A DNA stretch of 20,000 nucleotides. Source: an uncultured virus (IMG/VR IMGVR_UViG_3300021375_002229) (taxonomy: Duplodnaviria; Heunggongvirae; Uroviricota; Caudoviricetes). The translations under genes were made by a program, and so were the position numbers. Below the pieces are notes generated by a model. It was not told where the DNA came from, made no database searches, and saw only the letters and a list, made by a program, of their open reading frames with translations. The stretch lies in the IMG/VR virus record IMGVR_UViG_3300021375_002229. One strand, given 5' to 3'. Positions 6,704 through 20,000 of the stretch are shown one piece after another; positions within the stretch are counted from its first letter, which is position 1; each line of letters opens with the position of its first letter.

Positions 6704-7171
6704 ATGGCTTACAATCCCTTCAGATGGTTCACAAAAGGTAAATATAGAAAGAGACCTTTAAAATCAAAAGAACCTTTATTACTTAAAATACAAAATGGTG
6801 ATTTCGAATATTCACCATATCTTCTTGAATCTATTGATGAAGCGAATAATTATCAAAAGAAATTTGATGATTTTATGGAAACATCTTTACTACAAAATGG
6901 TCTTGATAAAGAAGTTGAGGCACACGAGCATGCAAAAATGAGAAGAATTGCATCTCAAAAACTTATGGAGAAGGGATTAGAAGAAGAGCAGACACGATTG
7001 ATGGAGTTGAGAACCCAATTAACTTCTGAGTTTGGTAAAGACCTTTGGGATAAGTGTATGGAAAAGCAAAGAGGAAAAGGTACTACTGAGGATATGTATT
7101 GGTGGTACAAAAAACAAATGGGATTAACCTACACTAAATCAGAACTTCAGATTAGAGGTATTAATTTATGA
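6704..7171 (+). CDS. Hypothetical protein, 155 aa
   Basis: ORF after a promoter; ATGA overlap with the next gene; no motif recognised. Confidence 0.8.
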   Translation: MAYNPFRWFTKGKYRKRPLKSKEPLLLKIQNGDFEYSPYLLESIDEANNYQKKFDDFMETSLLQNGLDKEVEAHEHAKMRRIASQKLMEKGLEEEQTRLMELRTQLTSEFGKDLWDKCMEKQRGKGTTEDMYWWYKKQMGLTYTKSELQIRGINL

Positions 7172-8031
7172 TTGAAAAAATATATGCATTTGGAACATCT
7201 CATACCGCAGGTGGTGGGTTTGAGTTTAATGTTTCAGATAGATACAGAAAGAATCCTAATTTATACAAGAAAATATTTGATACAGAGGACCACTTTGATT
7301 TCTCTTATCCAAATATATTAGGTAGGATGATAAATGTTGAGGTTGTAAATTTAGCCAAACAAGGATTTGGATATGAGCGAGTCAATCGTAAACTAATTGA
7401 AGTAGTATCTAGTCCTAAATTTAATAAAGATAGCTCACTTGTTCTTATAGAAATATCTGATTGGGATAGAAAAGAATGGTATTCTAAAGAAATAGGAAAG
7501 TATTTTATAACTAATTTTGGTCCTCGTAGTATTGATACGTTATCATTTTCTACTGATTATCACTATGAAAATAAAAAAGAGGCAGAAGTAATTTCTAAAT
7601 ATCAAAATACATTGATAGATTTTTATAAGATAACTCACAATGATTACCAATATCTAATTTCAAAGCTTCAAGAATCTTTTATATTTATGATATCATTTCT
7701 TCAAAGATTTGGTGTTAAGTTTTATCTAACTAATGGTGGTCTACCAATAGAGCCAAAATTTAAACAACAAATGAATTATGATTCAAATATAGTTGAATAT
7801 AAATTTCATAAAAATGTATTAAATTTTGTACAAGATATGAGTGAATTTAATATAGATAAAGAATCACGAGGAATTGTATCTGATAACCATCAAGGGGTTT
7901 CTGTTAATCTAACAATAGCAGAACACATATTTAATAAAATGATTGATGATAAGTATTTATTATCAGATAAAATTATTATAGATTTTAATAAGAATTGGGA
8001 ACTTATTCAAAATAAATTATTTGATGATTAA
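7168..8031 (+). CDS. SGNH/GDSL-like hydrolase or acyltransferase, paralog 1
   Basis: FGTSHTAG (block I Ser), NLAKQGFG (block II), C-terminal DNH (block V). Confidence 0.65.
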   Translation: MIEKIYAFGTSHTAGGGFEFNVSDRYRKNPNLYKKIFDTEDHFDFSYPNILGRMINVEVVNLAKQGFGYERVNRKLIEVVSSPKFNKDSSLVLIEISDWDRKEWYSKEIGKYFITNFGPRSIDTLSFSTDYHYENKKEAEVISKYQNTLIDFYKITHNDYQYLISKLQESFIFMISFLQRFGVKFYLTNGGLPIEPKFKQQMNYDSNIVEYKFHKNVLNFVQDMSEFNIDKESRGIVSDNHQGVSVNLTIAEHIFNKMIDDKYLLSDKIIIDFNKNWELIQNKLFDD

Positions 8032-8965
8032 GAAAATATATACTTTTGGAACATCTTATACAGAAGGTGGGGGATATGAGTGGCATAATGACCATCTTAA
8101 ATACTCAGTAATACACGCATATAAAGGTGTACCTGATGAATTAACTATGAAAAACTTTTCATATCCTGGTCAGTTACAAAAGTTATTATCAGATACTAAG
8201 TATGGTATTGAGGTTATAAACTTAGGCAAAAGTGGATATGGTAATGAAAGGTTATACAGAAAAGCAACCGATATAACAATGATGGATGATTTTGATAAAG
8301 ATACCACACTATTTTTATTTGAATTCTCTTGGACCGGTAGAAAAGAATTATACTCAAGAGCTTTAAAAGATTACATAATACTAAATTATAGTAATCCAGA
8401 CCACGAGAATAGACCGGACTTTACAACGGTACATGGATATGCAAGTGATTATGTATATGATGATAACAATACACATAACCAAAAAATGGATAAGATACCT
8501 GATGGACGTTTTTATCAACAATACTGTGATACTGTTATCAACCACGATATTCAGTTTAGCTTGTTAAAAAACTCAACAACTACATTTTTATCTTACTTAA
8601 CTTTAAATAAAATTAATTTTCTTACTGTTGTTCCTCCACATTATATTGAACCTTGTTATTGGGATACATTATTATATCCAAACATTATAAATACATTTCC
8701 TGATTATGATGGACATAATCTTGTAGGAGAATCGGGATTAATACAAAACGAAACATTAGATTTCCACCATGACCGACATTGGGGATATATTTCTAACAAA
8801 TGGATTGCCAGTTTGGTATATGATGAACTTATAGATAGAAATTTTATTGATGGTACAAAACTTAATAAAAAAAGAAAAGATTTTGATTATATTAATAATA
8901 TTATTCTTAATAATATAAAAAATTCACCAGATTGTAAACGAATTATTAAGGATAGAGAGAAATGA
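8021..8965 (+). CDS. SGNH/GDSL-like protein, paralog 2
   Basis: FGTSYTEG, NLGKSGYGN, DRH. Confidence 0.65.
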   Translation: MMIKKIYTFGTSYTEGGGYEWHNDHLKYSVIHAYKGVPDELTMKNFSYPGQLQKLLSDTKYGIEVINLGKSGYGNERLYRKATDITMMDDFDKDTTLFLFEFSWTGRKELYSRALKDYIILNYSNPDHENRPDFTTVHGYASDYVYDDNNTHNQKMDKIPDGRFYQQYCDTVINHDIQFSLLKNSTTTFLSYLTLNKINFLTVVPPHYIEPCYWDTLLYPNIINTFPDYDGHNLVGESGLIQNETLDFHHDRHWGYISNKWIASLVYDELIDRNFIDGTKLNKKRKDFDYINNIILNNIKNSPDCKRIIKDREK

Positions 8966-9888
8966 TTAAAAGAGTTATAACATATGGAACATCTAATACA
9001 GCTGGTGGTGGATTTGAATTTGATTCTACTATAATAGAAAAGGAATATTGGAAGGGGCAGATGGGTAACTCTCCTAAAACAAGAGGAGAACTTCTAAAAT
9101 CAATATACTCTGAAACACCACTAACACAAGATAATTATTCATGGCCAGGACAACTAAAAAGATTATTTAATGAAAATAATTTAAATATAGAGATAGAAAA
9201 CATATCTAAGCAGGGTTATGGTAATGATAGATTATACAGAAAGTTTTTTGAAGATTTTGATTTACATACTGATTACAAAAAAAACATTTATATCTTTGAA
9301 TTTAGTGATTTAAGTAGAAAAGAGTTTTATTTCAATCCTTTAAAAAACCATGTTGTACTTAATTATGCTTTAAATTACAATAGGAAACAAATAACAATAG
9401 CAGAAAGTTACTTTTACGATAGCAAAGATAAGATAAATCTCTTAAATGATAATTTAGAATTCTTTCATACATTTAGAGAAAATTTCATGGATTATGATAT
9501 TGAAATGAAAGATATATCAAGAAGATTATTGTGGTTTTTGAATTTCTTAAATTTGTATGAAGTAAATTATTACATATCAGCACCACCACAGATTATTCAT
9601 CCACAATATGAATCTCATATAGAATATTCAGATAAGTTAATTGAATTTGGATTTAAAAATAAAAAACAATATAGTTCATTTCATGAGTTTGCATCTCATG
9701 AAGGAATTAAAATTATTGATGAAACTAATGGAGGTTACACAGATGTACATCCTTCTCTATTCGCAACAAAAACTATTTCTAAAATTATTTGGAATAAACT
9801 CGTTCAAGATAATCTTATAAATAAAGATTTGTATGATATTCCGGAAGGTCCTGATTTTTCACAAACAATTAAAAAAAGTATAATGTAA
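8962..9888 (+). CDS. SGNH/GDSL-like protein, paralog 3
   Basis: YGTSNTAG, NISKQGYGN, DVHP. Confidence 0.65.
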   Translation: MIKRVITYGTSNTAGGGFEFDSTIIEKEYWKGQMGNSPKTRGELLKSIYSETPLTQDNYSWPGQLKRLFNENNLNIEIENISKQGYGNDRLYRKFFEDFDLHTDYKKNIYIFEFSDLSRKEFYFNPLKNHVVLNYALNYNRKQITIAESYFYDSKDKINLLNDNLEFFHTFRENFMDYDIEMKDISRRLLWFLNFLNLYEVNYYISAPPQIIHPQYESHIEYSDKLIEFGFKNKKQYSSFHEFASHEGIKIIDETNGGYTDVHPSLFATKTISKIIWNKLVQDNLINKDLYDIPEGPDFSQTIKKSIM

Positions 9889-9901
9889 ATATTTATAAAA
9901 C

Positions 9902-10081
9902 ATGAACAGAGTAAAAGAAGCGGTAATTCAAAAACTATTTAAAGTTATTGATTCAATGGATAAGGCAGAACACATTTATGGTGTAAGAAATTATCTTGAT
10001 TCATACTATAAGTTATATGGATTACAGAATAAAGGTATAATAGAAATATACTTTAGAACTAGAAAAGAAAAGTTTATATGA
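9902..10081 (+). CDS. Hypothetical protein, 59 aa
   Basis: Hand translation MNRVKEAVIQKLFKVIDSMDKAEHIYGVRNYLDSYYKLYGLQNKGIIEIYFRTRKEKFI; ATGA overlap with 10078. Confidence 0.7.
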   Translation: MNRVKEAVIQKLFKVIDSMDKAEHIYGVRNYLDSYYKLYGLQNKGIIEIYFRTRKEKFI

Positions 10082-10827
10082 TACTCTTTTTAGGAGATAG
10101 TATCACTTGGGGGCAGGGATTGCAAATAGAAAAATGGATTTCTGAAGGGAAATCTGTTGATTTTTGTAACAAACACTCAGTACCACATTATCATGGAGAG
10201 CATATTAGTTATGATGATGATATGTTTAGAAAGTCAAAACATTTTCCTAACTTAGTAGCTAAAGAATTAGGTGTTAGCTATTCTACAAAATGGGGTAATG
10301 GTGGAACAAACGATGAAACTACATTTATTATTGAAAATTTAGAAAAGCTCATTCACCCATATACGGTTCAATTGGTAGTTATTCAATTTACAGATATGGT
10401 TCGAGATGATTTGTTTTCATATGTAGATAATAAAAACTTTGGAGATTTAGCTGAACTAAATTTAAAAAATCAAATATTCAGAATTGATAATACTTTATCA
10501 TATCCAAAAAACAAAGATGAAATAATTCCATGGATAGGAATATCTTGGCATAAAGAACATTCTAACTTTTTGAAAGAAAAATATCCTAATAATTTTGTAG
10601 GATTTGAATATAATAATATGAAGTTTGATTGTTTACACGATTTGTATAAATGGAAGAACAATTTATTAAGAGAAGCCGATAGAAAATCCCATAAATTAGA
10701 AATAAAAGATATATATAATGGGATAGGCGATGGACATCCGAGTTCATTTGCCCATGAAATAATAGCTGAGAGTGTATTGAAAAAAATTAAAAGAGAAAAA
10801 ATACAATTTAGTAAGTTATGGAAATAG
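10078..10827 (+). CDS. SGNH/GDSL-like protein, paralog 4
   Basis: Canonical ILFLGDSITWG, GNGGTN, DGHPSSFAHEIIA. Confidence 0.8.
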   Translation: MILFLGDSITWGQGLQIEKWISEGKSVDFCNKHSVPHYHGEHISYDDDMFRKSKHFPNLVAKELGVSYSTKWGNGGTNDETTFIIENLEKLIHPYTVQLVVIQFTDMVRDDLFSYVDNKNFGDLAELNLKNQIFRIDNTLSYPKNKDEIIPWIGISWHKEHSNFLKEKYPNNFVGFEYNNMKFDCLHDLYKWKNNLLREADRKSHKLEIKDIYNGIGDGHPSSFAHEIIAESVLKKIKREKIQFSKLWK

Positions 10828-11423: not shown

Positions 11424-12138
11424 TTGTACAGATGTTTTTGTATATGGTAGTTGTGATAGGTTATGTCCTGAAGCACCAATACCTGTATTCAAACCATCAA
11501 AAACCATAACCAATCAAGGTATGGCTGGAAATGTTGTTGATAACCTCAGAGCATTAGGAGTTAGAAAAACTGAACTAATCACTAACAACGAACAAATCAT
11601 AAAAACAAGATATGTAGAAACCAAATCAAACCAAATGCTACTCAGAGTAGATGGTAATGATAAGGTTTCTAATTCATTTGATTATCGTAAGGTAGATTTT
11701 GAATCATATGATGCAGTAATAGTTGCTGATTATGATAAAGGATATCTAACCAACAAAGATATCCAAAAAATTGGTGAATATTCTGAATTATCTTTCATTG
11801 ATACTAAAAAAACTATTGATTTAGAAAACTTCAAAGGATATACTTTCATTAAAATGAATGAAGTTGAGTGGGAGCGTTGTATGGAACATGGAGCAGAATA
11901 TGATGAATGGAAAGATAATCTAATTATAACAATGTCAGAGCGAGGTTGTATGTTTGATAACAAACGATACTCAGTAGATAATACAGTTGAGGTTAGGGAT
12001 TTGAGCGGAGCAGGTGATACTTGGATGGCATCATTTGTAGTAAAATATTTAGAAGAATATAATACAGTAGATGCAATTAAAGATGCAAACAAGAATGCAA
12101 CATTAGTAGTACAAAAACGAGGAGTTTCAACAATATGA
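11398..12138 (+). CDS. rfaE: RfaE/HldE kinase domain (heptose-7-phosphate kinase-like, PfkB family)
   Basis: ILVIGD..D.FVYG.CDRLCPEAPIPV, GMAGNV, IKTRY, LLRVD, DYDKG, RDLSGAGDT, VVQKRG match HldE domain I; no fused nucleotidyltransferase domain. Confidence 0.85.
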   Translation: MKILVIGDSCTDVFVYGSCDRLCPEAPIPVFKPSKTITNQGMAGNVVDNLRALGVRKTELITNNEQIIKTRYVETKSNQMLLRVDGNDKVSNSFDYRKVDFESYDAVIVADYDKGYLTNKDIQKIGEYSELSFIDTKKTIDLENFKGYTFIKMNEVEWERCMEHGAEYDEWKDNLIITMSERGCMFDNKRYSVDNTVEVRDLSGAGDTWMASFVVKYLEEYNTVDAIKDANKNATLVVQKRGVSTI

Positions 12139-12833
12139 AAAATATTCTAATTGGTGGTTGTTCATTTAGTGAAACCTATTTAGACCGAAAAGGACCGCCA
12201 AATCATCCTTGGATTCCATATACAGATTTATTAAAAGTAAATCATCCTAAAACAACTTTTAAAAATACGGCAAGGGAATCATCAGGTAATGCAGAAATAG
12301 CTGAAAATATTGTAGAGCAAGTTATAAATAATGATTATGATTTCGTAATAGTACAATGGTCAGCAATCGGAAGAGGATACGCAACTAATGAAAGTGAATG
12401 GATTGATAAATTATTACAAAGTAATTCAATTGATAGATTACATAGAATAAATAATTATGTAAATACTGGTTTAGCTGAAGGAGCTACTTCTAATGGGTTC
12501 ACTAATATAGTATCATTTTCTCATTACAAAAGTTCTCTGTTAAATATAAAAATGACACAAACATTTTTAGAAAGTAAAAACATACCATACATCTTTTTTT
12601 GGGGATGGAAGCAATTAAACGATGAAATATACGAACAACATCCAAAATTGATTGATAGTATTTATGAAGCAAATTGGTGGTATCCTTCTCAAAAATTCGA
12701 AGGTATGCAACAGTATATACTTTCACAAATGAGTGAAGATGAAGGCCTTGCTGGTGATGGGTTACATCCTTCAACAAAAGGACATGAATTATTTTATAAT
12801 AACATAATAAAGGAGATAATATGGAAGGAGTAA
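12135..12833 (+). CDS. SGNH/GDSL-like protein, paralog 5
   Basis: ILIGGCSFS, NTARESSGN, VIVQWS, DGLHPSTKGHELF. Confidence 0.72.
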   Translation: MKNILIGGCSFSETYLDRKGPPNHPWIPYTDLLKVNHPKTTFKNTARESSGNAEIAENIVEQVINNDYDFVIVQWSAIGRGYATNESEWIDKLLQSNSIDRLHRINNYVNTGLAEGATSNGFTNIVSFSHYKSSLLNIKMTQTFLESKNIPYIFFWGWKQLNDEIYEQHPKLIDSIYEANWWYPSQKFEGMQQYILSQMSEDEGLAGDGLHPSTKGHELFYNNIIKEIIWKE

Positions 12834-12982
12834 TTTGGAATGATAATTCTGTAAGTTGGAAAATGAACGGAAAAATATTTACCACTGCCCCATTTAATAA
12901 TAAAGAAGAAGCTACTGCTTTTTTAGAAAAGTTGGGTAGTTCTCAAATAACAGATTTTAAAGTAGAAGGAATTAAAGTTTAA
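12821..12982 (+). CDS. 53-aa microprotein, paralog A
   Basis: Hand translation MEGVIWNDNSVSWKMNGKIFTTAPFNNKEEATAFLEKLGSSQITDFKVEGIKV; clearly homologous to ORF 19667-19828. Confidence 0.85.
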   Translation: MEGVIWNDNSVSWKMNGKIFTTAPFNNKEEATAFLEKLGSSQITDFKVEGIKV

Positions 12983-14958: not shown

Positions 14959-16113
14959 ATGAAAGCAAGAGTAATTAGATACGATAATTTAGGTGTAGAA
15001 TCAATACCATGTAATTACAAATCTTTCAACATAGGTTCAATTTTTTTTGTAGATAATTCTCAATCAGCTGATGATAAATTTGAATATTTAAACTTTTCCA
15101 AAAAGAATATTATTGAAAATAAAGATTCATTAGTAAAACTTTTTAACGAGTTAATTGATGAATTTGATGATAAAACAGATAAATTTACCTTCTACCGAAT
15201 ACATGAATGCTTTTGGTGGGATGGGTTTTATTTTTTATATAAAATTCTAAATGAAGTGTTCACAAACCGAGGTATTCATTCAAAGTTAAAATTTATTGAT
15301 AATAACCCTAATTTTAAATTAAAAGACAATTATAGTAACTATAAAGGATTTCCTTATATGTTAGCTATTCCCTTTTACAAACCTACTAAAGAAGATGTTA
15401 ATTTTGAAGCCAGAATAGTAGATAAACATTTTCTTTGCTTAAATCGAAGAATTAAACCATTTAGAGAACAGATAGTTGAAATGATTCATGAAAATAATCT
15501 ATTAGATAAATTTCATTATTCTTTTGGTGTAGATGGTATATCCAATAAACATCCATTTTTTAATTCAATAGATGGTCTTATATTAACAGGATTTAATCCA
15601 ATAACCGGCTATGAAAAATCAACATTTTGTATGTTAATTACGGAAAATACAATTGATAATAGATTTAAAACCGATGATGAATATGTAAATTCCCAAATTC
15701 ATATTAGAGATGGATTATTTATACATCTTACAGAAAAAACTACAAGAGCGCTTACTTTAGGAATACCATTTATTATGATATCCAGTCCATATTCACTAAA
15801 AGTTCTCAGAGAGCATGGATTCAAAACTTTCGGTGACTTTTGGGATGAAAGCTATGATAATATAATAGATTGGGATGAAAGATATAAAATGATTGAAAGT
15901 ATAGTACTTCAGTTATCAAATTATTCAATTGAAAAATGTAATGAAATTTACAAAGAAATGCTTCCTATTTTAAAACATAATAGAAATAGATATTTAGAAC
16001 TAAATAAATATTGGGAAGATAATATAAAAGAGGATGATGATTTTATTGATTATCAATTAGATAATGAAGATGAATATTATAAACTATTTGAACAAATGAA
16101 ATTTACAAAATGA
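14959..16113 (+). CDS. Putative glycosyltransferase, GT10/GT-B-like paralog 3
   Basis: FLCLNRRIKPFR; STFCMLITENT...LTEKTTRALTLGIPFIMIS...GFKTFGDFWDESYD. Confidence 0.55.
   Translation: MKARVIRYDNLGVESIPCNYKSFNIGSIFFVDNSQSADDKFEYLNFSKKNIIENKDSLVKLFNELIDEFDDKTDKFTFYRIHECFWWDGFYFLYKILNEVFTNRGIHSKLKFIDNNPNFKLKDNYSNYKGFPYMLAIPFYKPTKEDVNFEARIVDKHFLCLNRRIKPFREQIVEMIHENNLLDKFHYSFGVDGISNKHPFFNSIDGLILTGFNPITGYEKSTFCMLITENTIDNRFKTDDEYVNSQIHIRDGLFIHLTEKTTRALTLGIPFIMISSPYSLKVLREHGFKTFGDFWDESYDNIIDWDERYKMIESIVLQLSNYSIEKCNEIYKEMLPILKHNRNRYLELNKYWEDNIKEDDDFIDYQLDNEDEYYKLFEQMKFTK
15815..15863 (+). repeat. Exact 49-nt direct repeat, copy 2
   Basis: Identical to 13839-13887. Confidence 0.95.
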
Positions 16114-16898
16114 GTACTTTAGTTACATTAGGATGTTCTTTTTCACAAGGAGATGGTTGTTATGATATAGATACTATGCCAGAAAATTGTGATAATAATA
16201 ATAAAGATTTTCAAGAATATCGAGAGAATAATATGGATAGATTTAATAAAAACTCTATTGGTGCAAATCTTCAAAAAAGATTTGGTTATGAAACCTTTAT
16301 AAATTATGGATACGCTGGTTCTTCAAATGAATCACAATTACTCAATTTTTTCAATAACTTACCAAATGATGAAAATGTTACTATATTTTGGCAACTTACA
16401 TTTTATGATAGAGCATTTGAGATAATAGGCCGAGGTTTTCATGATGCAGGGCAACATAGAAAATGGGTATTGGAAAAAATAGAAGAAAAGGTAAAATCCC
16501 ACAATCAATCTTTACCTCAAATGACGCTAGATAGTAGAATTGAAACAATTCTTAGAATAAATGTATTGAAAGAATATTGTATAGCTAGAGGTTGGAATTT
16601 ATTCATATGGTCTTGGACCAATGATGGTAATGGATTAATATCAATTCAACCAAGCTTATCAGAAATATTAGTAAATTTTAAAAATAAAATACATGAATAT
16701 TCAGATGATTTACCAAACGAATACAAATCACCTATACCAAATGATTCTCATCCAAATGAAAAAGGATATAAGTTAGTATCGGATGATATGTGTAATTGGA
16801 TAGATAAAAATAATCACAGATTAAAGGTACCAATGCCTAATGAAATACCATTGGAACAAATAAAAGTTAGTAATAATCAACAAATCAAATTTAAATAA
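16110..16898 (+). CDS. SGNH/GDSL-like protein, paralog 6
   Basis: LVTLGCSFSQGDG, NYGYAGSSN, IFWQLT, DSHPNEKGYKLVS. Confidence 0.75.
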   Translation: MSTLVTLGCSFSQGDGCYDIDTMPENCDNNNKDFQEYRENNMDRFNKNSIGANLQKRFGYETFINYGYAGSSNESQLLNFFNNLPNDENVTIFWQLTFYDRAFEIIGRGFHDAGQHRKWVLEKIEEKVKSHNQSLPQMTLDSRIETILRINVLKEYCIARGWNLFIWSWTNDGNGLISIQPSLSEILVNFKNKIHEYSDDLPNEYKSPIPNDSHPNEKGYKLVSDDMCNWIDKNNHRLKVPMPNEIPLEQIKVSNNQQIKFK

Positions 16899-16910
16899 AA
16901 GGAAACAATT

Positions 16911-17039
16911 ATGGGAAGTAAATTTTTTGGAAACAAACACGATAAACAAAACAATAAGAATACAAAATCACAAGTGAAAACCAATTCAAAAGGAAAAGGT
17001 GCAAACATGGGGGTTAGAAAAGTAGGACGTGGTAAATAA
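16911..17039 (+). CDS. 42-aa basic low-complexity microprotein
   Basis: Hand translation MGSKFFGNKHDKQNNKNTKSQVKTNSKGKGANMGVRKVGRGK; leader AAAAGGAAACAATT. Confidence 0.65.
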   Translation: MGSKFFGNKHDKQNNKNTKSQVKTNSKGKGANMGVRKVGRGK

Positions 17040-17154
17040 AGATAGAGAGTGGGATTTCTTATATTGGGATGATGAAGATACGGAAGATGGAATAGATGAT
17101 TTCACCATAAAAGAAAAAAATAAACCCTATAACGATGATGAATACGATTATTAA
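17029..17154 (+). CDS. 41-aa acidic microprotein
   Basis: GTG start; MVNKDREWDFLYWDDEDTEDGIDDFTIKEKNKPYNDDEYDY; overlaps the previous stop. Confidence 0.5.
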   Translation: MVNKDREWDFLYWDDEDTEDGIDDFTIKEKNKPYNDDEYDY

Positions 17155-17162
17155 ATAACGAA

Positions 17163-17317
17163 TCGAACCCCCTCCATGAACAAGCGGGAACTCATGTACA
17201 TATTGTGGATAATAGCAGCTTGGATAATTTTACAAATTATAGTGTATAATTGGATAATCTCATTTTACTTATAGTACCCCTACTCCCCCTTTCGTTCTTT
17301 TGTCGTGGGGGGTTCGA
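17163..17317. repeat. Long-range inverted repeat enclosing a micro-ORF
   Basis: TCGAACCCCC(TC)CATGA at 17163-17179 is complementary to TCGTGGGGGGTTCGA at 17303-17317: 10 perfect bp plus a 5-bp extension past a bulge. Confidence 0.8.
17176..17274 (+). CDS. 32-aa hydrophobic single-pass membrane peptide
   Basis: MNKRELMYILWIIAAWIILQIIVYNWIISFYL: charged N-terminus and ~25 apolar residues. Confidence 0.5.
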   Translation: MNKRELMYILWIIAAWIILQIIVYNWIISFYL

Positions 17318-17370
17318 AGAGTCGTTAAGAAAATTTTTTCACCTATTTTTATTGATAGTATTTATAGGAT

Positions 17371-17511
17371 ATGAAGATATGTAGGAAATGTAACATACAA
17401 TTAGAGTACTATAAACCCACAAGTGGAGCATATTATATATGTGTTAAATGTAATGATGTATCGTATCCAATAGAAGATATCGATAAAGTAGTGGATAGAG
17501 GTAGAGATTAA
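17371..17511 (+). CDS. 46-aa zinc-ribbon microprotein
   Basis: MKICRKCNIQLEYYKPTSGAYYICVKCNDVSYPIEDIDKVVDRGRD has CxxC-x16-CxxC; ends 4 nt before the next ATG. Confidence 0.7.
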   Translation: MKICRKCNIQLEYYKPTSGAYYICVKCNDVSYPIEDIDKVVDRGRD

Positions 17512-17515
17512 TATT

Positions 17516-17929
17516 ATGAGTAGAAGCAAAGATATACAAGATAACAAATTCAAAGTGATTATTTCAACAAGAGGAAGAAAGAATAAACAACCTCGTAAGG
17601 AAAGCTCGGTAAAAAGAGTAATAAAGAAAATAATACAATGGAGATTAATAGGGTATATAGTAATAGGAGTATCCTTATGGAAACTAAACAAGGATATAAA
17701 CACCCTATCTATTCAGATGTTTTTACTTATAGTATTCACAGAACTACAATCAAGAGGAGTATCTAAACAAGAGATTGACTCACTTAAAGAAGAACTCAAT
17801 ATAGATGGAAGTATGGAAGTGAAATACTCCCAAAGGAAAGATTTAAAGAGAGAGGCTCTTCTAGCTCAAGAAGAAAGAGATTTAGCTTCATCCAAACAAG
17901 ATATAGAAGAGAATTACAAGCCTCGATAA
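17516..17929 (+). CDS. Hypothetical membrane protein, 137 aa
   Basis: Basic N-terminus, hydrophobic segments (LIGYIVIGVSLW; LSIQMFLLIVF), charged C-terminus; terminator follows. Confidence 0.65.
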   Translation: MSRSKDIQDNKFKVIISTRGRKNKQPRKESSVKRVIKKIIQWRLIGYIVIGVSLWKLNKDINTLSIQMFLLIVFTELQSRGVSKQEIDSLKEELNIDGSMEVKYSQRKDLKREALLAQEERDLASSKQDIEENYKPR

Positions 17930-17970
17930 AGCACCCTAATCTAAATATAGTAGGGAAATGAACACAAACG

Positions 17971-18005
17971 GAGGATAGCTCAATACAAAGAGTTATCCTT
18001 TTTTT
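17971..18005 (+). terminator. Rho-independent terminator
   Basis: GAGGATAGCTC-aatacaaa-GAGTTATCCTT hairpin followed by a T-run. Confidence 0.85.
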
Positions 18006-18284
18006 AGCTCCCTACGTTCCTTACTCCCTTGAGTGAAGATTTCCCCTAAAACCCAACGAATTACTGAGGGATTTTAAGAGGATTTAAGAGGCTGAGAATT
18101 GTATCCGTATCAAGATATCACACCCCTTTAAAAGTTAACTCCTATATACCCCTATTCCTTCCTATAAGCCTCCTATCGAGGTTTAAAACTTTATAAGGAG
18201 TTTCACAATAGGGATATATCAAAATAGAATTGTGATACATTCTCCCTATATGATATAGTGGTAATGAATGTGGAAGCATAGTTG

Positions 18285-18322
18285 AAGGGCTCAAGTGTGT
18301 GTTCGTGTAGAGCCTTTTTTTT
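18285..18322 (+). terminator. Possible terminator in the non-coding region
   Basis: AAGGGCTC...GAGCCTTT stem with a 17-nt loop, running into T8. Confidence 0.5.
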
Positions 18323-18351
18323 CTCGTAGTGAATTTTCTAGCCTAATAACC

Positions 18352-18465
18352 TGACACATTGTCATGTTTTACTTGTTTACAATTGTGAACACAAATGAGG
18401 ATTTCACAATAGAAGCTCATATTTGATGATAATACCCTAAATCGGAGCTTCATGACAAATTGTCA
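18352..18465. promoter_or_regulatory. Pair of TGACA-N3-TGTCA palindromes (putative protein-binding sites)
   Basis: TGACAcatTGTCA at 18352-18364 and TGACAaatTGTCA at 18453-18465. Confidence 0.6.
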
Positions 18466-18474
18466 CCTGTTTTA

Positions 18475-18507
18475 TTTGGAATTCTCATAAAAAAGTTGTA
18501 TCTTTAG
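18475..18507 (+). promoter_or_regulatory. Bacteroidota-like promoter, copy 3
   Basis: TTTGGA...GTATCTTTAG with the same spacing as the other copies. Confidence 0.65.
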
Positions 18508-18601
18508 GGTGGTTGTGGGTGGGAGTATTCCAATATTTTGAGGATTTCACATCTCACAGCGATGCCTATATGAGAATAATTCAAAAAAAAGTGGTAAATA
18601 A

Positions 18602-18634
18602 TTTGGATTTCTCAGGAATTATTCGTATATTTAC
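18602..18634 (+). promoter_or_regulatory. Bacteroidota-like promoter, copy 4
   Basis: TTTGGA...TCGTATATTTAC. Confidence 0.75.
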
Positions 18635-18641
18635 TATGTAA

Positions 18642-18854
18642 ATGAGAGATAATAAAACAAAAGAGAGTATGAGAGCTAGAGATTGGGTACTGATAGGGAT
18701 AATATCGATAGTAGGAATAGCGTTAATACCTATAACGATAGATATATTCTTTAGTGTACTACTGTATATGATGAAAGAACCGTTATCTGCGCTTGGAATA
18801 CTGAGCTTGGTGATGATTTCGTTCATTATTGGTATGAGTACCGAAAAAAAGTAA
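18642..18854 (+). CDS. Small two-helix membrane protein
   Basis: Two long hydrophobic stretches; the true start may be the ATG at 18669. Confidence 0.65.
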   Translation: MRDNKTKESMRARDWVLIGIISIVGIALIPITIDIFFSVLLYMMKEPLSALGILSLVMISFIIGMSTEKK

Positions 18855-18871
18855 AGAAAAGTACGAAAAAA

Positions 18872-18904
18872 TTTGGATAATTAAAATATTTTTCGTATCT
18901 TTAC
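18872..18904 (+). promoter_or_regulatory. Bacteroidota-like promoter, copy 5 (tRNA transcript)
   Basis: TTTGGA...TCGTATCTTTAC about 70 nt upstream of the tRNA. Confidence 0.75.
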
Positions 18905-18957
18905 ATAGTAAATGAGGTTGATGATTGAGAATCGCTCTAATTAACCGAGGTTACAAA

Positions 18958-18970
18958 CGTTCTTTAAAAA
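18958..18970 (+). promoter_or_regulatory. boxA-like antitermination element
   Basis: CGTTCTTTAAAAA versus consensus GYTCTTTAANA; preceded by a hairpin and 5 nt upstream of the tRNA. Confidence 0.55.
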
Positions 18971-18975
18971 TATCT

Positions 18976-19047
18976 GCGGGTGAGGGGTTAAGAGAAACCT
19001 GCTTGGCATCCAGTCAAGAGAAGTTGGGGCAGTTCCAACCATCCGCT
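18976..19047 (+). tRNA. tRNA-Gly(TCC), non-canonical loops, CCA not encoded
   Basis: Acceptor GCGGGTG/CATCCGC, D-stem GGGT/ACCT, anticodon stem CTTGG/TCAAG with loop CA-TCC-AG, T-stem GTTGG/CCAAC, discriminator T; Gly identity elements G1-C72, C2-G71, G3-C70, U73, C35, C36 are all present. Confidence 0.85.
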
Positions 19048-19054
19048 CAATATA

Positions 19055-19220
19055 ACGATGAGGTGTCACAGGCGATGAAATGATACTACGCACCGAAAAT
19101 CGTATTTATCTGAGGTTAAGGGGTTTTCCTCAGTATTAAATGGAGACTATACACTCTCTCCTATCCAAAAAGTGTTCGTCCGAACCACCCGCTAAGAAGC
19201 TTAGTCTCCACTTAGTGGGT
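19055..19220 (+). ncRNA. Unidentified structured RNA downstream of the tRNA
   Basis: No ORF; GC-richer than the flanks; stems ACGAT/ATCGT, GGTG/CACC, CTGAGG/CCTCAG, TGGAGACTA/TAGTCTCCA, ACACT/AGTGT. Confidence 0.45.
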
Positions 19221-19227
19221 TTTTTTT
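19187..19227 (+). terminator. Rho-independent terminator of the tRNA transcript
   Basis: ACCCGCTAAG-N14-CTTAGTGGGT (10 bp, one G-U) followed by T7. Confidence 0.8.
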
Positions 19228-19256
19228 GCTCTTTAGTGAAAATAATTGAAGAAAAG

Positions 19257-19289
19257 TTTGGATATATCAAATATTTGTTGTATATTTAC
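19257..19289 (+). promoter_or_regulatory. Bacteroidota-like promoter, copy 6
   Basis: TTTGGA...TGTATATTTAC upstream of ORF 19344. Confidence 0.75.
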
Positions 19290-19343
19290 TATGTAATAAA
19301 GATTGAGAGATAAATAAAATATAAACCTTAAAAAACAAAAATC

Positions 19344-19661
19344 ATGAGAAACTTTAATTTTTACAAAAACGAAATAGAGGAAATAGTAAAGGAACTACCT
19401 TCTAACATTAAGGAGTGGGGTGTATCGGAAATGTTACTCCATTCAGCCGAGGGTTCCTATCTTCGATTGAATTTAAACGATGGAAGAGATATGTTTGTTC
19501 TGTTCTACGAACTTTTGGAAGAAATATATAAGAACGACGAAGAATTTAACAACGATGAGTACTATGATAAGTTCTTTGAAGAAGTTATAAAGAATAGTTC
19601 ATTATGGGAGTTATCTGAAGATATACGAGAACTTGCTATAAAGGAGAGATATAAACTTTAG
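19344..19661 (+). CDS. Hypothetical acidic protein, 105 aa
   Basis: Own promoter and A-rich leader; E/D-rich. Confidence 0.8.
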   Translation: MRNFNFYKNEIEEIVKELPSNIKEWGVSEMLLHSAEGSYLRLNLNDGRDMFVLFYELLEEIYKNDEEFNNDEYYDKFFEEVIKNSSLWELSEDIRELAIKERYKL

Positions 19662-19666
19662 AATAT

Positions 19667-19828
19667 ATGGAAGGTGTAATTTGGAAAGATAAATCCGTTA
19701 GTTGGAAAGATGGGGATGGTAGAGTATATACTACCGGCGCATTCAAGACTAAGAAAGAAGCAAAGGAGTTCCTAACTAAGTTGGGTACAACTCCTATAAA
19801 AGAAATCAACATAAAAGGAATTCGGTAA
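19667..19828 (+). CDS. 53-aa microprotein, paralog B
   Basis: Hand translation MEGVIWKDKSVSWKDGDGRVYTTGAFKTKKEAKEFLTKLGTTPIKEINIKGIR; homologous to 12821-12982. Confidence 0.85.
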   Translation: MEGVIWKDKSVSWKDGDGRVYTTGAFKTKKEAKEFLTKLGTTPIKEINIKGIR

Positions 19829-19856
19829 GTGTAATAATAATTAAAATAGCTCACAT

Positions 19857-20000
19857 ATGAATAAAACTAATACTAACACTATGAAGTATAAACACAGAAA
19901 CTGTATAATAGAACTTACTCCTACTGAACTGTATCCAGAGCTAGTAACTATTGTACAAACTCCTAAGTTAAGAGGAGATTTCCTTAATAGGAGATACTTA
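19857..20000 (+). CDS. Hypothetical protein, 3' truncated
   Basis: ATG at 19857 (or 19881) open to the window end: MKYKHRNCIIELTPTELYPELVTIV... Confidence 0.55.
   Translation, partial: MNKTNTNTMKYKHRNCIIELTPTELYPELVTIVQTPKLRGDFLNRRYL

Follow-up and report, generated by a model that had tools for sequence, protein, structure and literature searches.

What does a phage gain from a tRNA gene that keeps all four stems and the letters for glycine identity, and in which most of the invariant loop bases have been replaced? The question is raised by 20,000 nucleotides of DNA from an uncultured virus (hereafter the window, meaning the whole stretch analysed), which has a GC content of 29% and carries its genes on the plus strand. 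Near its end, the gene in question forms part of a cassette in which promoter, leader, tRNA, three-hairpin element and terminator follow one another:

18872–18903, plus strand: Bacteroidota-type promoter (TTTG ... TAnnTTT), from a pattern match.
18905–18975, plus strand: conserved leader between promoter and tRNA, from blastn matches in 16 of 173 loci.
18976–19050, plus strand: non-canonical tRNA-Gly (anticodon UCC at 19009–19011; U73 at 19047; CCA not encoded), from fold, family alignment and model score.
19052–19206, plus strand: conserved structured non-coding element of three stem-loops, from blastn matches in 25 of 173 loci.
19207–19229, plus strand: intrinsic terminator-like hairpin and U tract at the end of the cassette, conserved in the alignment of the element.

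The gene folds into a cloverleaf of 7+4+5+5 pairs, G-U pairs at 5-68, 10-25 and 31-39 included. This cloverleaf is the minimum free energy fold (−27 kcal/mol, z −2.1; 7 of 200 shuffles were equally good), and 300 shuffles of the window produced no perfect cloverleaf with the geometry of the tRNA. The canonical architecture (RF00005) is present in the form of four stems and of an anticodon loop and a T loop of 7 nt each. Of the canonical set U8/A14, G18G19, U33, U54-U55-C56 and A58, only G19 and C56 are retained: the tRNA has A8, U14, A33, the T-loop GGCAGUU and the pair U51-A63, its D-loop reads UAAGAGAA, without GG, and it ends in CAA (19048–19050). The GlyRS identity set, which we take to be G1-C72, C2-G71, G3-C70, C35, C36 and U73, is complete. 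An initial annotation had described paired stems, an intact identity set and changed loop letters, and all the features that it listed are present. It had also proposed scoring with tRNA finders: ARAGORN at default settings does not call the gene in the window and at -ps80 calls it alongside 10 junk calls, and an Rfam search of the window returns no tRNA match. Applied to four family loci, Rfam detected five canonical tRNAs but passed over every family copy. Since ARAGORN and Rfam are blind to such genes, inventories of phage tRNAs miss them. Against the family model R1, the training set of which included it, the tRNA scores 93.9 bits.

The TTTG ... TAnnTTT consensus, presumably of the Bacteroidota type, is matched at 18475, 18602, 18872 and 19257, that is, four times in the last 1.6 kb of the window, as against a mean of 0.05 and a maximum of 1 in shuffles, the pattern having been defined after the sites were seen. 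These four tandem promoters precede short ORFs and the RNA cassette. Among the matches listed, promoter-like stretches are covered in GenBank phages whose hosts are nearly all Bacteroidota. In the three-hairpin element, the alignment displays compensating variation in the stems and near-invariant loops, and Rfam gave no match to it. The element begins 1–3 nt 3' of the tRNA in several relatives and is probably co-transcribed with it. Taken with the terminator (19052–19229, about 175 nt), it is possibly a separate small RNA. Elsewhere in the window, complementary GC-rich arms about 130 nt apart lie in a non-coding gap at 17160–17320 and possibly belong to a structured RNA; related contigs in four runs cover these arms. 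The window also holds two similar 53-aa ORFs (12821–12982 and 19667–19828, the latter with a weak Arm-DNA-bind_4 match), six similar ORFs across 7168–10827, 12135–12833 and 16110–16898, the starts of which resemble SGNH/GDSL hydrolases (one weak Pfam match), and three similar ORFs of 380–420 aa at 1342, 12992 and 14959 with no Pfam match.

That both ARAGORN and Rfam miss the gene speaks for a pseudogene in decay or a mistake of assembly. In run X6 (study P3, 2018) a contig covers 17899–19092 with a single differing letter, outside the tRNA; being identical across the tRNA and from an independent study, it argues against an error of assembly. At least 93% of the words of 17000–20000 are present in 14 DNA runs of 11 marine studies (two of these runs are possibly the source), and RNA runs contain 0–8% of them. 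In X18, a 196-nt contig of a relative crosses the tRNA with ten differing letters, a compensating 27-43 change among them; as a sign of transcription it has to be read with the fact that contigs of RNA libraries may derive from DNA. When the letters of the tRNA or of the hairpin behind it were required exactly, pattern searches of IMG/VR gave zero matches, as did searches with two flanking window proteins. When only the identity letters, A8 and A33 were fixed, a pattern scan of IMG/VR returned 53 loci, of which 37 carry the family of the window, four have atypical Gly cloverleafs of another kind and 12 matched by chance. A structure-only scan, in which no loop letter was used, revealed partner copies beside the pattern-matched ones, with U33, G33 or ACC anticodons. 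A metagenome scan, with many loop letters fixed in the pattern, added at least 120 stretches. The pooled set (the window, the 53 IMG/VR loci and 79 of 119 metagenome loci) comprises 193 copies, 112 of them distinct, a lower bound for the family. The changes are thus not private to one sequence with canonical relatives, the outcome that the initial annotation had named as refuting its reading, and its view that the gene is not decaying is borne out: 109 of 112 distinct copies are paired at all 21 positions, and in 35 distinct copies pairing holds in 735 of 735 cells, with two-sided changes at 12 of the 21 pairs. Conservation refutes the pseudogene, which we consider scarcely credible.

The unbiased test of conservation is the IMG/VR set of 24 pattern-matched and 10 structure-only copies. 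In these 34 copies A8, U14, A18, G19, G55, C56, U51, A63, C35, C36 and U73 are invariant, and G54 and G58 are present in 33, so that the A8-U14 and G54/G55/G58 positions singled out by the initial annotation are indeed conserved. In the pattern-matched copies the Gly identity letters were fixed by the search pattern itself; all ten structure-only partners have A8 together with G1-C72, C2-G71, G3-C70, C35, C36 and U73. The gene family is under selection for the cloverleaf and for these letters. These rebuilt glycine tRNAs of T4-like aquatic phages are thus a genuine family that has been overlooked, abundant in both marine and freshwater data. The cultured phages of the GenBank set contain no copy, and the literature search, with most subscription journals outside its scope, found no account of the family or of phage tRNAs dedicated to Mom.

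Variation is found in the anticodon loop. Position 33 is A in 73, U in 36 and G in 3 of the 112 distinct copies, so A33 is not the hallmark that it had been taken for, and position 34 is U in 98 and A in 14. Because positions 33 and 34 are free, recognition by GlyRS is a better fit than decoding. Two or three family copies, often in tandem, occur at 75 of 117 loci, and canonical tRNAs, Gly(GCC) among them, often share the clusters. Of the canonical tRNA-Gly(GCC) genes at the same loci, 16 are distinct; 14 of these share the CAA end earlier regarded as an oddity, and none ends in CCA. One variant has 18/55 back to G/U together with 54/58 back to U/A, and a second has reverted at 54/58 alone; these reversions hint that both A18/G55 and G54/G58 are substitute contacts in the elbow. 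An intermediate form (L101:781–855), with A8-U14 and A33 and with canonical GG and UUC loops, has a full copy of the family some 270 nt away.

These data bear on the possibility that the tRNA is divergent and yet competent in translation, reading GGA or all GGN codons during infection and resisting host tRNA nucleases. Neighbouring phage tRNAs for other amino acids have canonical loops, A33 or G33, ACC anticodons (rare in glycine tRNAs) and the loss of U54, U55 and A58 are expected to impair decoding, and pair 51-63 is fixed as U-A in the family, unlike the G-C or C-G of 12 of the 16 canonical phage Gly(GCC) genes. A decoding role would suit the codon usage of the window, in which 140 of 317 Gly codons in ORFs are GGA, the retention of U33 in about one-third of copies, and the ARAGORN results for two carriers of the family, G004 (no canonical Gly tRNA) and G014 (GCC only). 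On balance, we hold this explanation to be quite unlikely.

The carriers offer a more specific clue. The genome G004 (213.6 kb, 100% complete) is syntenic with the window, several of its proteins are 54–85% identical, and its family tRNA occupies the equivalent place. Both G004 and G014 are T4-like and encode ribosomal protein bS21, and their nearest cultured capsid relatives are Mel-JY01 and Flavobacterium phage immuto. From these relatives and the promoter type, carriers of the family are probably phages of Bacteroidota. The capsid protein of Mel-JY01 (L310, PP395634), a phage deposited under Microcystis, places it with immuto and these putative Bacteroidota phages.

The Mom family (PF25680) was searched for in the 45 records behind 50 loci. 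It is present, with two to three copies each, in all 10 family-bearing records that are at least 87% complete, which represent about five lineages, and likewise in one at 70% completeness. No Mom was found in 21 fragmentary family-bearing records (≤63% complete), nor in nine chance-match records and four of other type. Eighteen records were chosen by capsid protein, and the complete ones among them are G047, with two Mom genes and the family tRNA, and G049, a sister of G004 and G047, with one Mom, a DruA gene and canonical Gly tRNAs only. Mom and the tRNA thus occur together in 11 of 11 near-complete carriers (the 10 records and G047), representing about six lineages in two clades; the phage of the window would have Mom genes too, as read from its syntenic relative G004. 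The two are about 50–70 kb apart in G001, G002, G004 and G005. The five GenBank relatives lack the family tRNA; Mom is absent in four and represented by weak matches only in one (LR756508), where they fall in long ORFs resembling the Mom-endonuclease fusions described in the available text of PMC7824862. Immuto and Mel-JY01 lie inside the capsid tree with neither Mom nor the family tRNA; according to the accessible part of a preprint (bioRxiv 2023.04.13.536721), immuto relies on guanine modification. In this tree the carriers form two supported groups, with G049 sister to one and immuto and Mel-JY01 beside the other. For the pairing of tRNA and Mom this amounts to both being absent together once or twice and to a single discordant case, a suggestive pattern and not a test. 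The genome-wide RNA search lost one canonical tRNA of 44 bits, so weak matches can escape it; family copies score above 90 bits.

DruA (PF14236) is present in nine of 10 IMG/VR records of the clade and in none of six GenBank records. As G049 has it, DruA was rejected as a feature separating the carriers from G049. The DruA-family gene of G004 (L071:62–1279) lies among replication genes and is a candidate second user of the tRNA; the protein is 67% identical between G004 and G014. The Mom paralogs of the clade match PF25680 at E 1e-35 to 1e-50. G004 and G014 Mom retain H58, Y59, R111, S124, D149 and Y159 of Mu Mom, and these six putative active-site residues are invariant across seven aligned Mom proteins; of the catalytic residues R111, S124, D149 and R151, the last is not conserved.

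The initial annotation had suggested a non-ribosomal glycyl donor and a search for FemAB or GNAT transferases and a CCA-adding enzyme. The donor proposal gains candidate partners in GNATs of the Mom and DruA type and loses FemAB: Pfam finds no Fem transferase in the 25 ORFs of the window, and no Fem, GlyRS or CCA-enzyme family among the 220 ORFs of G004. A 1202-aa CTP_transf_like+HD protein of G004 was discarded as a CCA enzyme, as it matches no CCA-enzyme family. A glycyl donor could also be imagined for some other enzyme, viral (one of the uncharacterised transferases of the clade) or of the host, that modifies surface glycans, lipids or proteins. The lack of linkage between Mom and the tRNA in the clade of the window is in keeping with such a role, as are the small GNATs of the carrier phages and their many genes for glycosyl-, methyl- and carbamoyltransferases. 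Against this, the 220 G004 ORFs contain neither MprF-type nor other known aminoacyl-tRNA transferases, and Mom is the sole family detected that uses Gly-tRNA. We judge this alternative decidedly improbable.

Physical linkage between glycine tRNAs and Mom or GNAT genes was found elsewhere. A pattern scan of GTDB gave mostly chance matches, with four cloverleafs among the 120 matches listed. One of these, in a prophage of an alphaproteobacterial MAG (L324), has the D and T loops of the window, scores 75.9 bits with the family model and overlaps the 3' end of a Mom gene (E 4.5e-44); a second runs into the end of an ORF similar to the ParB-like gene of L049. The other two are A8-U14 Gly tRNAs within large tRNA arrays (L356:3999–4073 and L363:3286–3360), and their contigs were assigned to MAGs of Promethearchaeota and Myxococcota. 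At three related IMG/VR loci, an A8/A33 Gly cloverleaf lies in the gene directly downstream of a Dam-like/GNAT fusion (PF22555+PF22559). In the best 80 of 559 loci of this fusion (L441–L520), a Gly-identity cloverleaf is found at 29; with any one of seven control dinucleotides the count is 0 of 80. ARAGORN reports 28 Gly and three Met tRNAs there. The Gly tRNAs comprise 26 distinct sequences over 14–21 protein clusters, with 22 within 400 bases upstream; all four bases occur at position 34, and six of the 26 look canonical. The 29 of the best 80 loci suggest that the fusion may be a Gly-tRNA-dependent enzyme. The fusion gave no sign of a specific kinship with Mom (hhalign probability 0.15%; Mom not among the listed Foldseek matches), its fold matches being Dam and general GNAT only. 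The notion of an adjacent Gly tRNA at every mom gene was rejected: no Gly cloverleaf was near Mom in 13 cultured-phage loci, nor in 16 other loci from 1601 scored bacterial genomes. A Gammaproteobacteria-centred sample of 400 genomes contained no Mom at E 1e-12.

This linkage also weighs on the idea of a decoy or counter-defence, according to which a charged or uncharged tRNA-Gly mimic titrates a host factor aimed at tRNA-Gly. The target could be a tRNA-modifying toxin, an anticodon nuclease or a starvation sensor, with the variation at 33-34 representing escape or diversity of the bait. Several copies with differing anticodon loops per genome are what such a function might look like, and so is the placement of the tRNA in a small non-coding cassette with a second conserved stem-loop RNA, far from Mom. 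The L324 copy, however, has loops of this design and overlaps a mom gene, and Gly tRNAs cluster specifically at the phage GNAT cassette. We regard a decoy as unlikely.

The explanation that we prefer, with reasonable though not strong confidence, is that the tRNA is a phage-encoded, dedicated glycyl donor for DNA hypermodification that avoids EF-Tu. From the conservation, the identity letters and the co-occurrence with Mom, all of which are observed, we infer the following biochemical steps. The tRNA would be transcribed from its Bacteroidota-type promoter and trimmed, after which host enzymes would add CCA and host GlyRS would glycylate it. Maturation and charging by the host would be in line with the retention of G19-C56 and with the canonical phage tRNAs, in which CCA is not encoded either. 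By analogy with staphylococcal non-proteogenic tRNA-Gly, its rebuilt elbow, a 51-63 pair fixed as U-A and the freedom at positions 33-34 would shield the tRNA from EF-Tu and the ribosome; a U51-A63 pair, like A51-U63, is taken to be weak for EF-Tu binding. The Mom paralogs, and perhaps the DruA-family protein, would then move glycine from the tRNA to N6 of adenine in phage DNA, a modification that would protect the genome of about 200 kb from restriction while the translation pool is not drained. The tRNA would be a booster and not a requirement, because Mu Mom accepts any host tRNA-Gly.

A wider reading, to which we give slightly less than an even chance, is that phages widely encode ribosome-orthogonal Gly tRNAs in which one alternative elbow (A8-U14, A18/G55, G54/G58, free 33-34) has been employed again and again, as private substrates for Mom and other GNAT enzymes that modify DNA. 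In this reading, A33 copies and the U33/ACC copies paired with them may each supply a different paralog in an adenine modification of several steps. If so, an adjacent Gly tRNA would flag uncharacterised GNATs (PF22559, DruA) as Gly-tRNA-dependent, and it would be a genomic marker for tRNA-dependent enzymes still to be found. Dedicated non-proteogenic tRNAs have been demonstrated in staphylococci only, as far as the available text of PMC7826273 goes; a viral example in the service of DNA chemistry would be the second and would broaden that principle. The family also provides a natural set of more than 100 tRNAs that may be charged and yet avoid translation.

Among known systems, the bS21-encoding Bacteroidetes phages (PMC9723584) resemble G004 and G014 in their T4-like core with bS21, and the capsid proteins of G004 and immuto are 49.5% identical. 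The genomes of those phages are 293–331 kb, their tRNAs were identified with tRNAscan-SE, and the accessible portion of that paper mentions neither an atypical Gly tRNA nor Mom. Another likeness, as described in the available text of PMC3146451 (2011), is found in the ssrA islands of Dehalococcoides, which harbour a 76-bp tRNA-Gly-like ‘pseudo-tRNA’ with anticodon DCC inside mom homologs. It shares with the window family an atypical Gly cloverleaf, a free first anticodon base and a tie to mom. The Dehalococcoides element belongs to an integrative island and lies within the 5' part of mom itself, whereas the gene of the window is free-standing and far from mom.

Mu Mom, according to the part of PMC13219725 available, moves glycine from Gly-tRNA-Gly onto adenine N6, is active with all three E. 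coli isoacceptors and depends on R151 as an essential residue. The paralogs of the clade have PF25680 and the six putative active-site residues in common with it, and differ in that there are two to three of them, accompanied by DruA, and in that R151 is not kept. Mu uses host tRNA-Gly, and no phage-encoded tRNA is mentioned for it in that part of the paper.

A functional parallel is offered by the staphylococcal non-proteogenic tRNA-Gly species NP1–3, for which the available text of PMC7826273 proposes diversion from EF-Tu to the GNAT-fold transferases FmhB/FemA/FemB, with G51-C63 giving tight and A51-U63 weak EF-Tu binding. As described there, the NP tRNAs and the window family both have Gly identity, G55 in place of U55 and no G51-C63, and both coexist with canonical tRNA-Gly. 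The staphylococcal species have U8, A49-U65 and A51-U63. In contrast, the window family is phage-encoded and has A8-U14, A18, G54/G58, variable 33-34 and G49-C65, and by the NP sequence criteria in that text it falls outside the group, having GGC almost throughout together with G49-C65 and U51-A63. The acceptor would differ as well, being peptidoglycan for the staphylococcal Fem system and, as proposed here for the window family, DNA.
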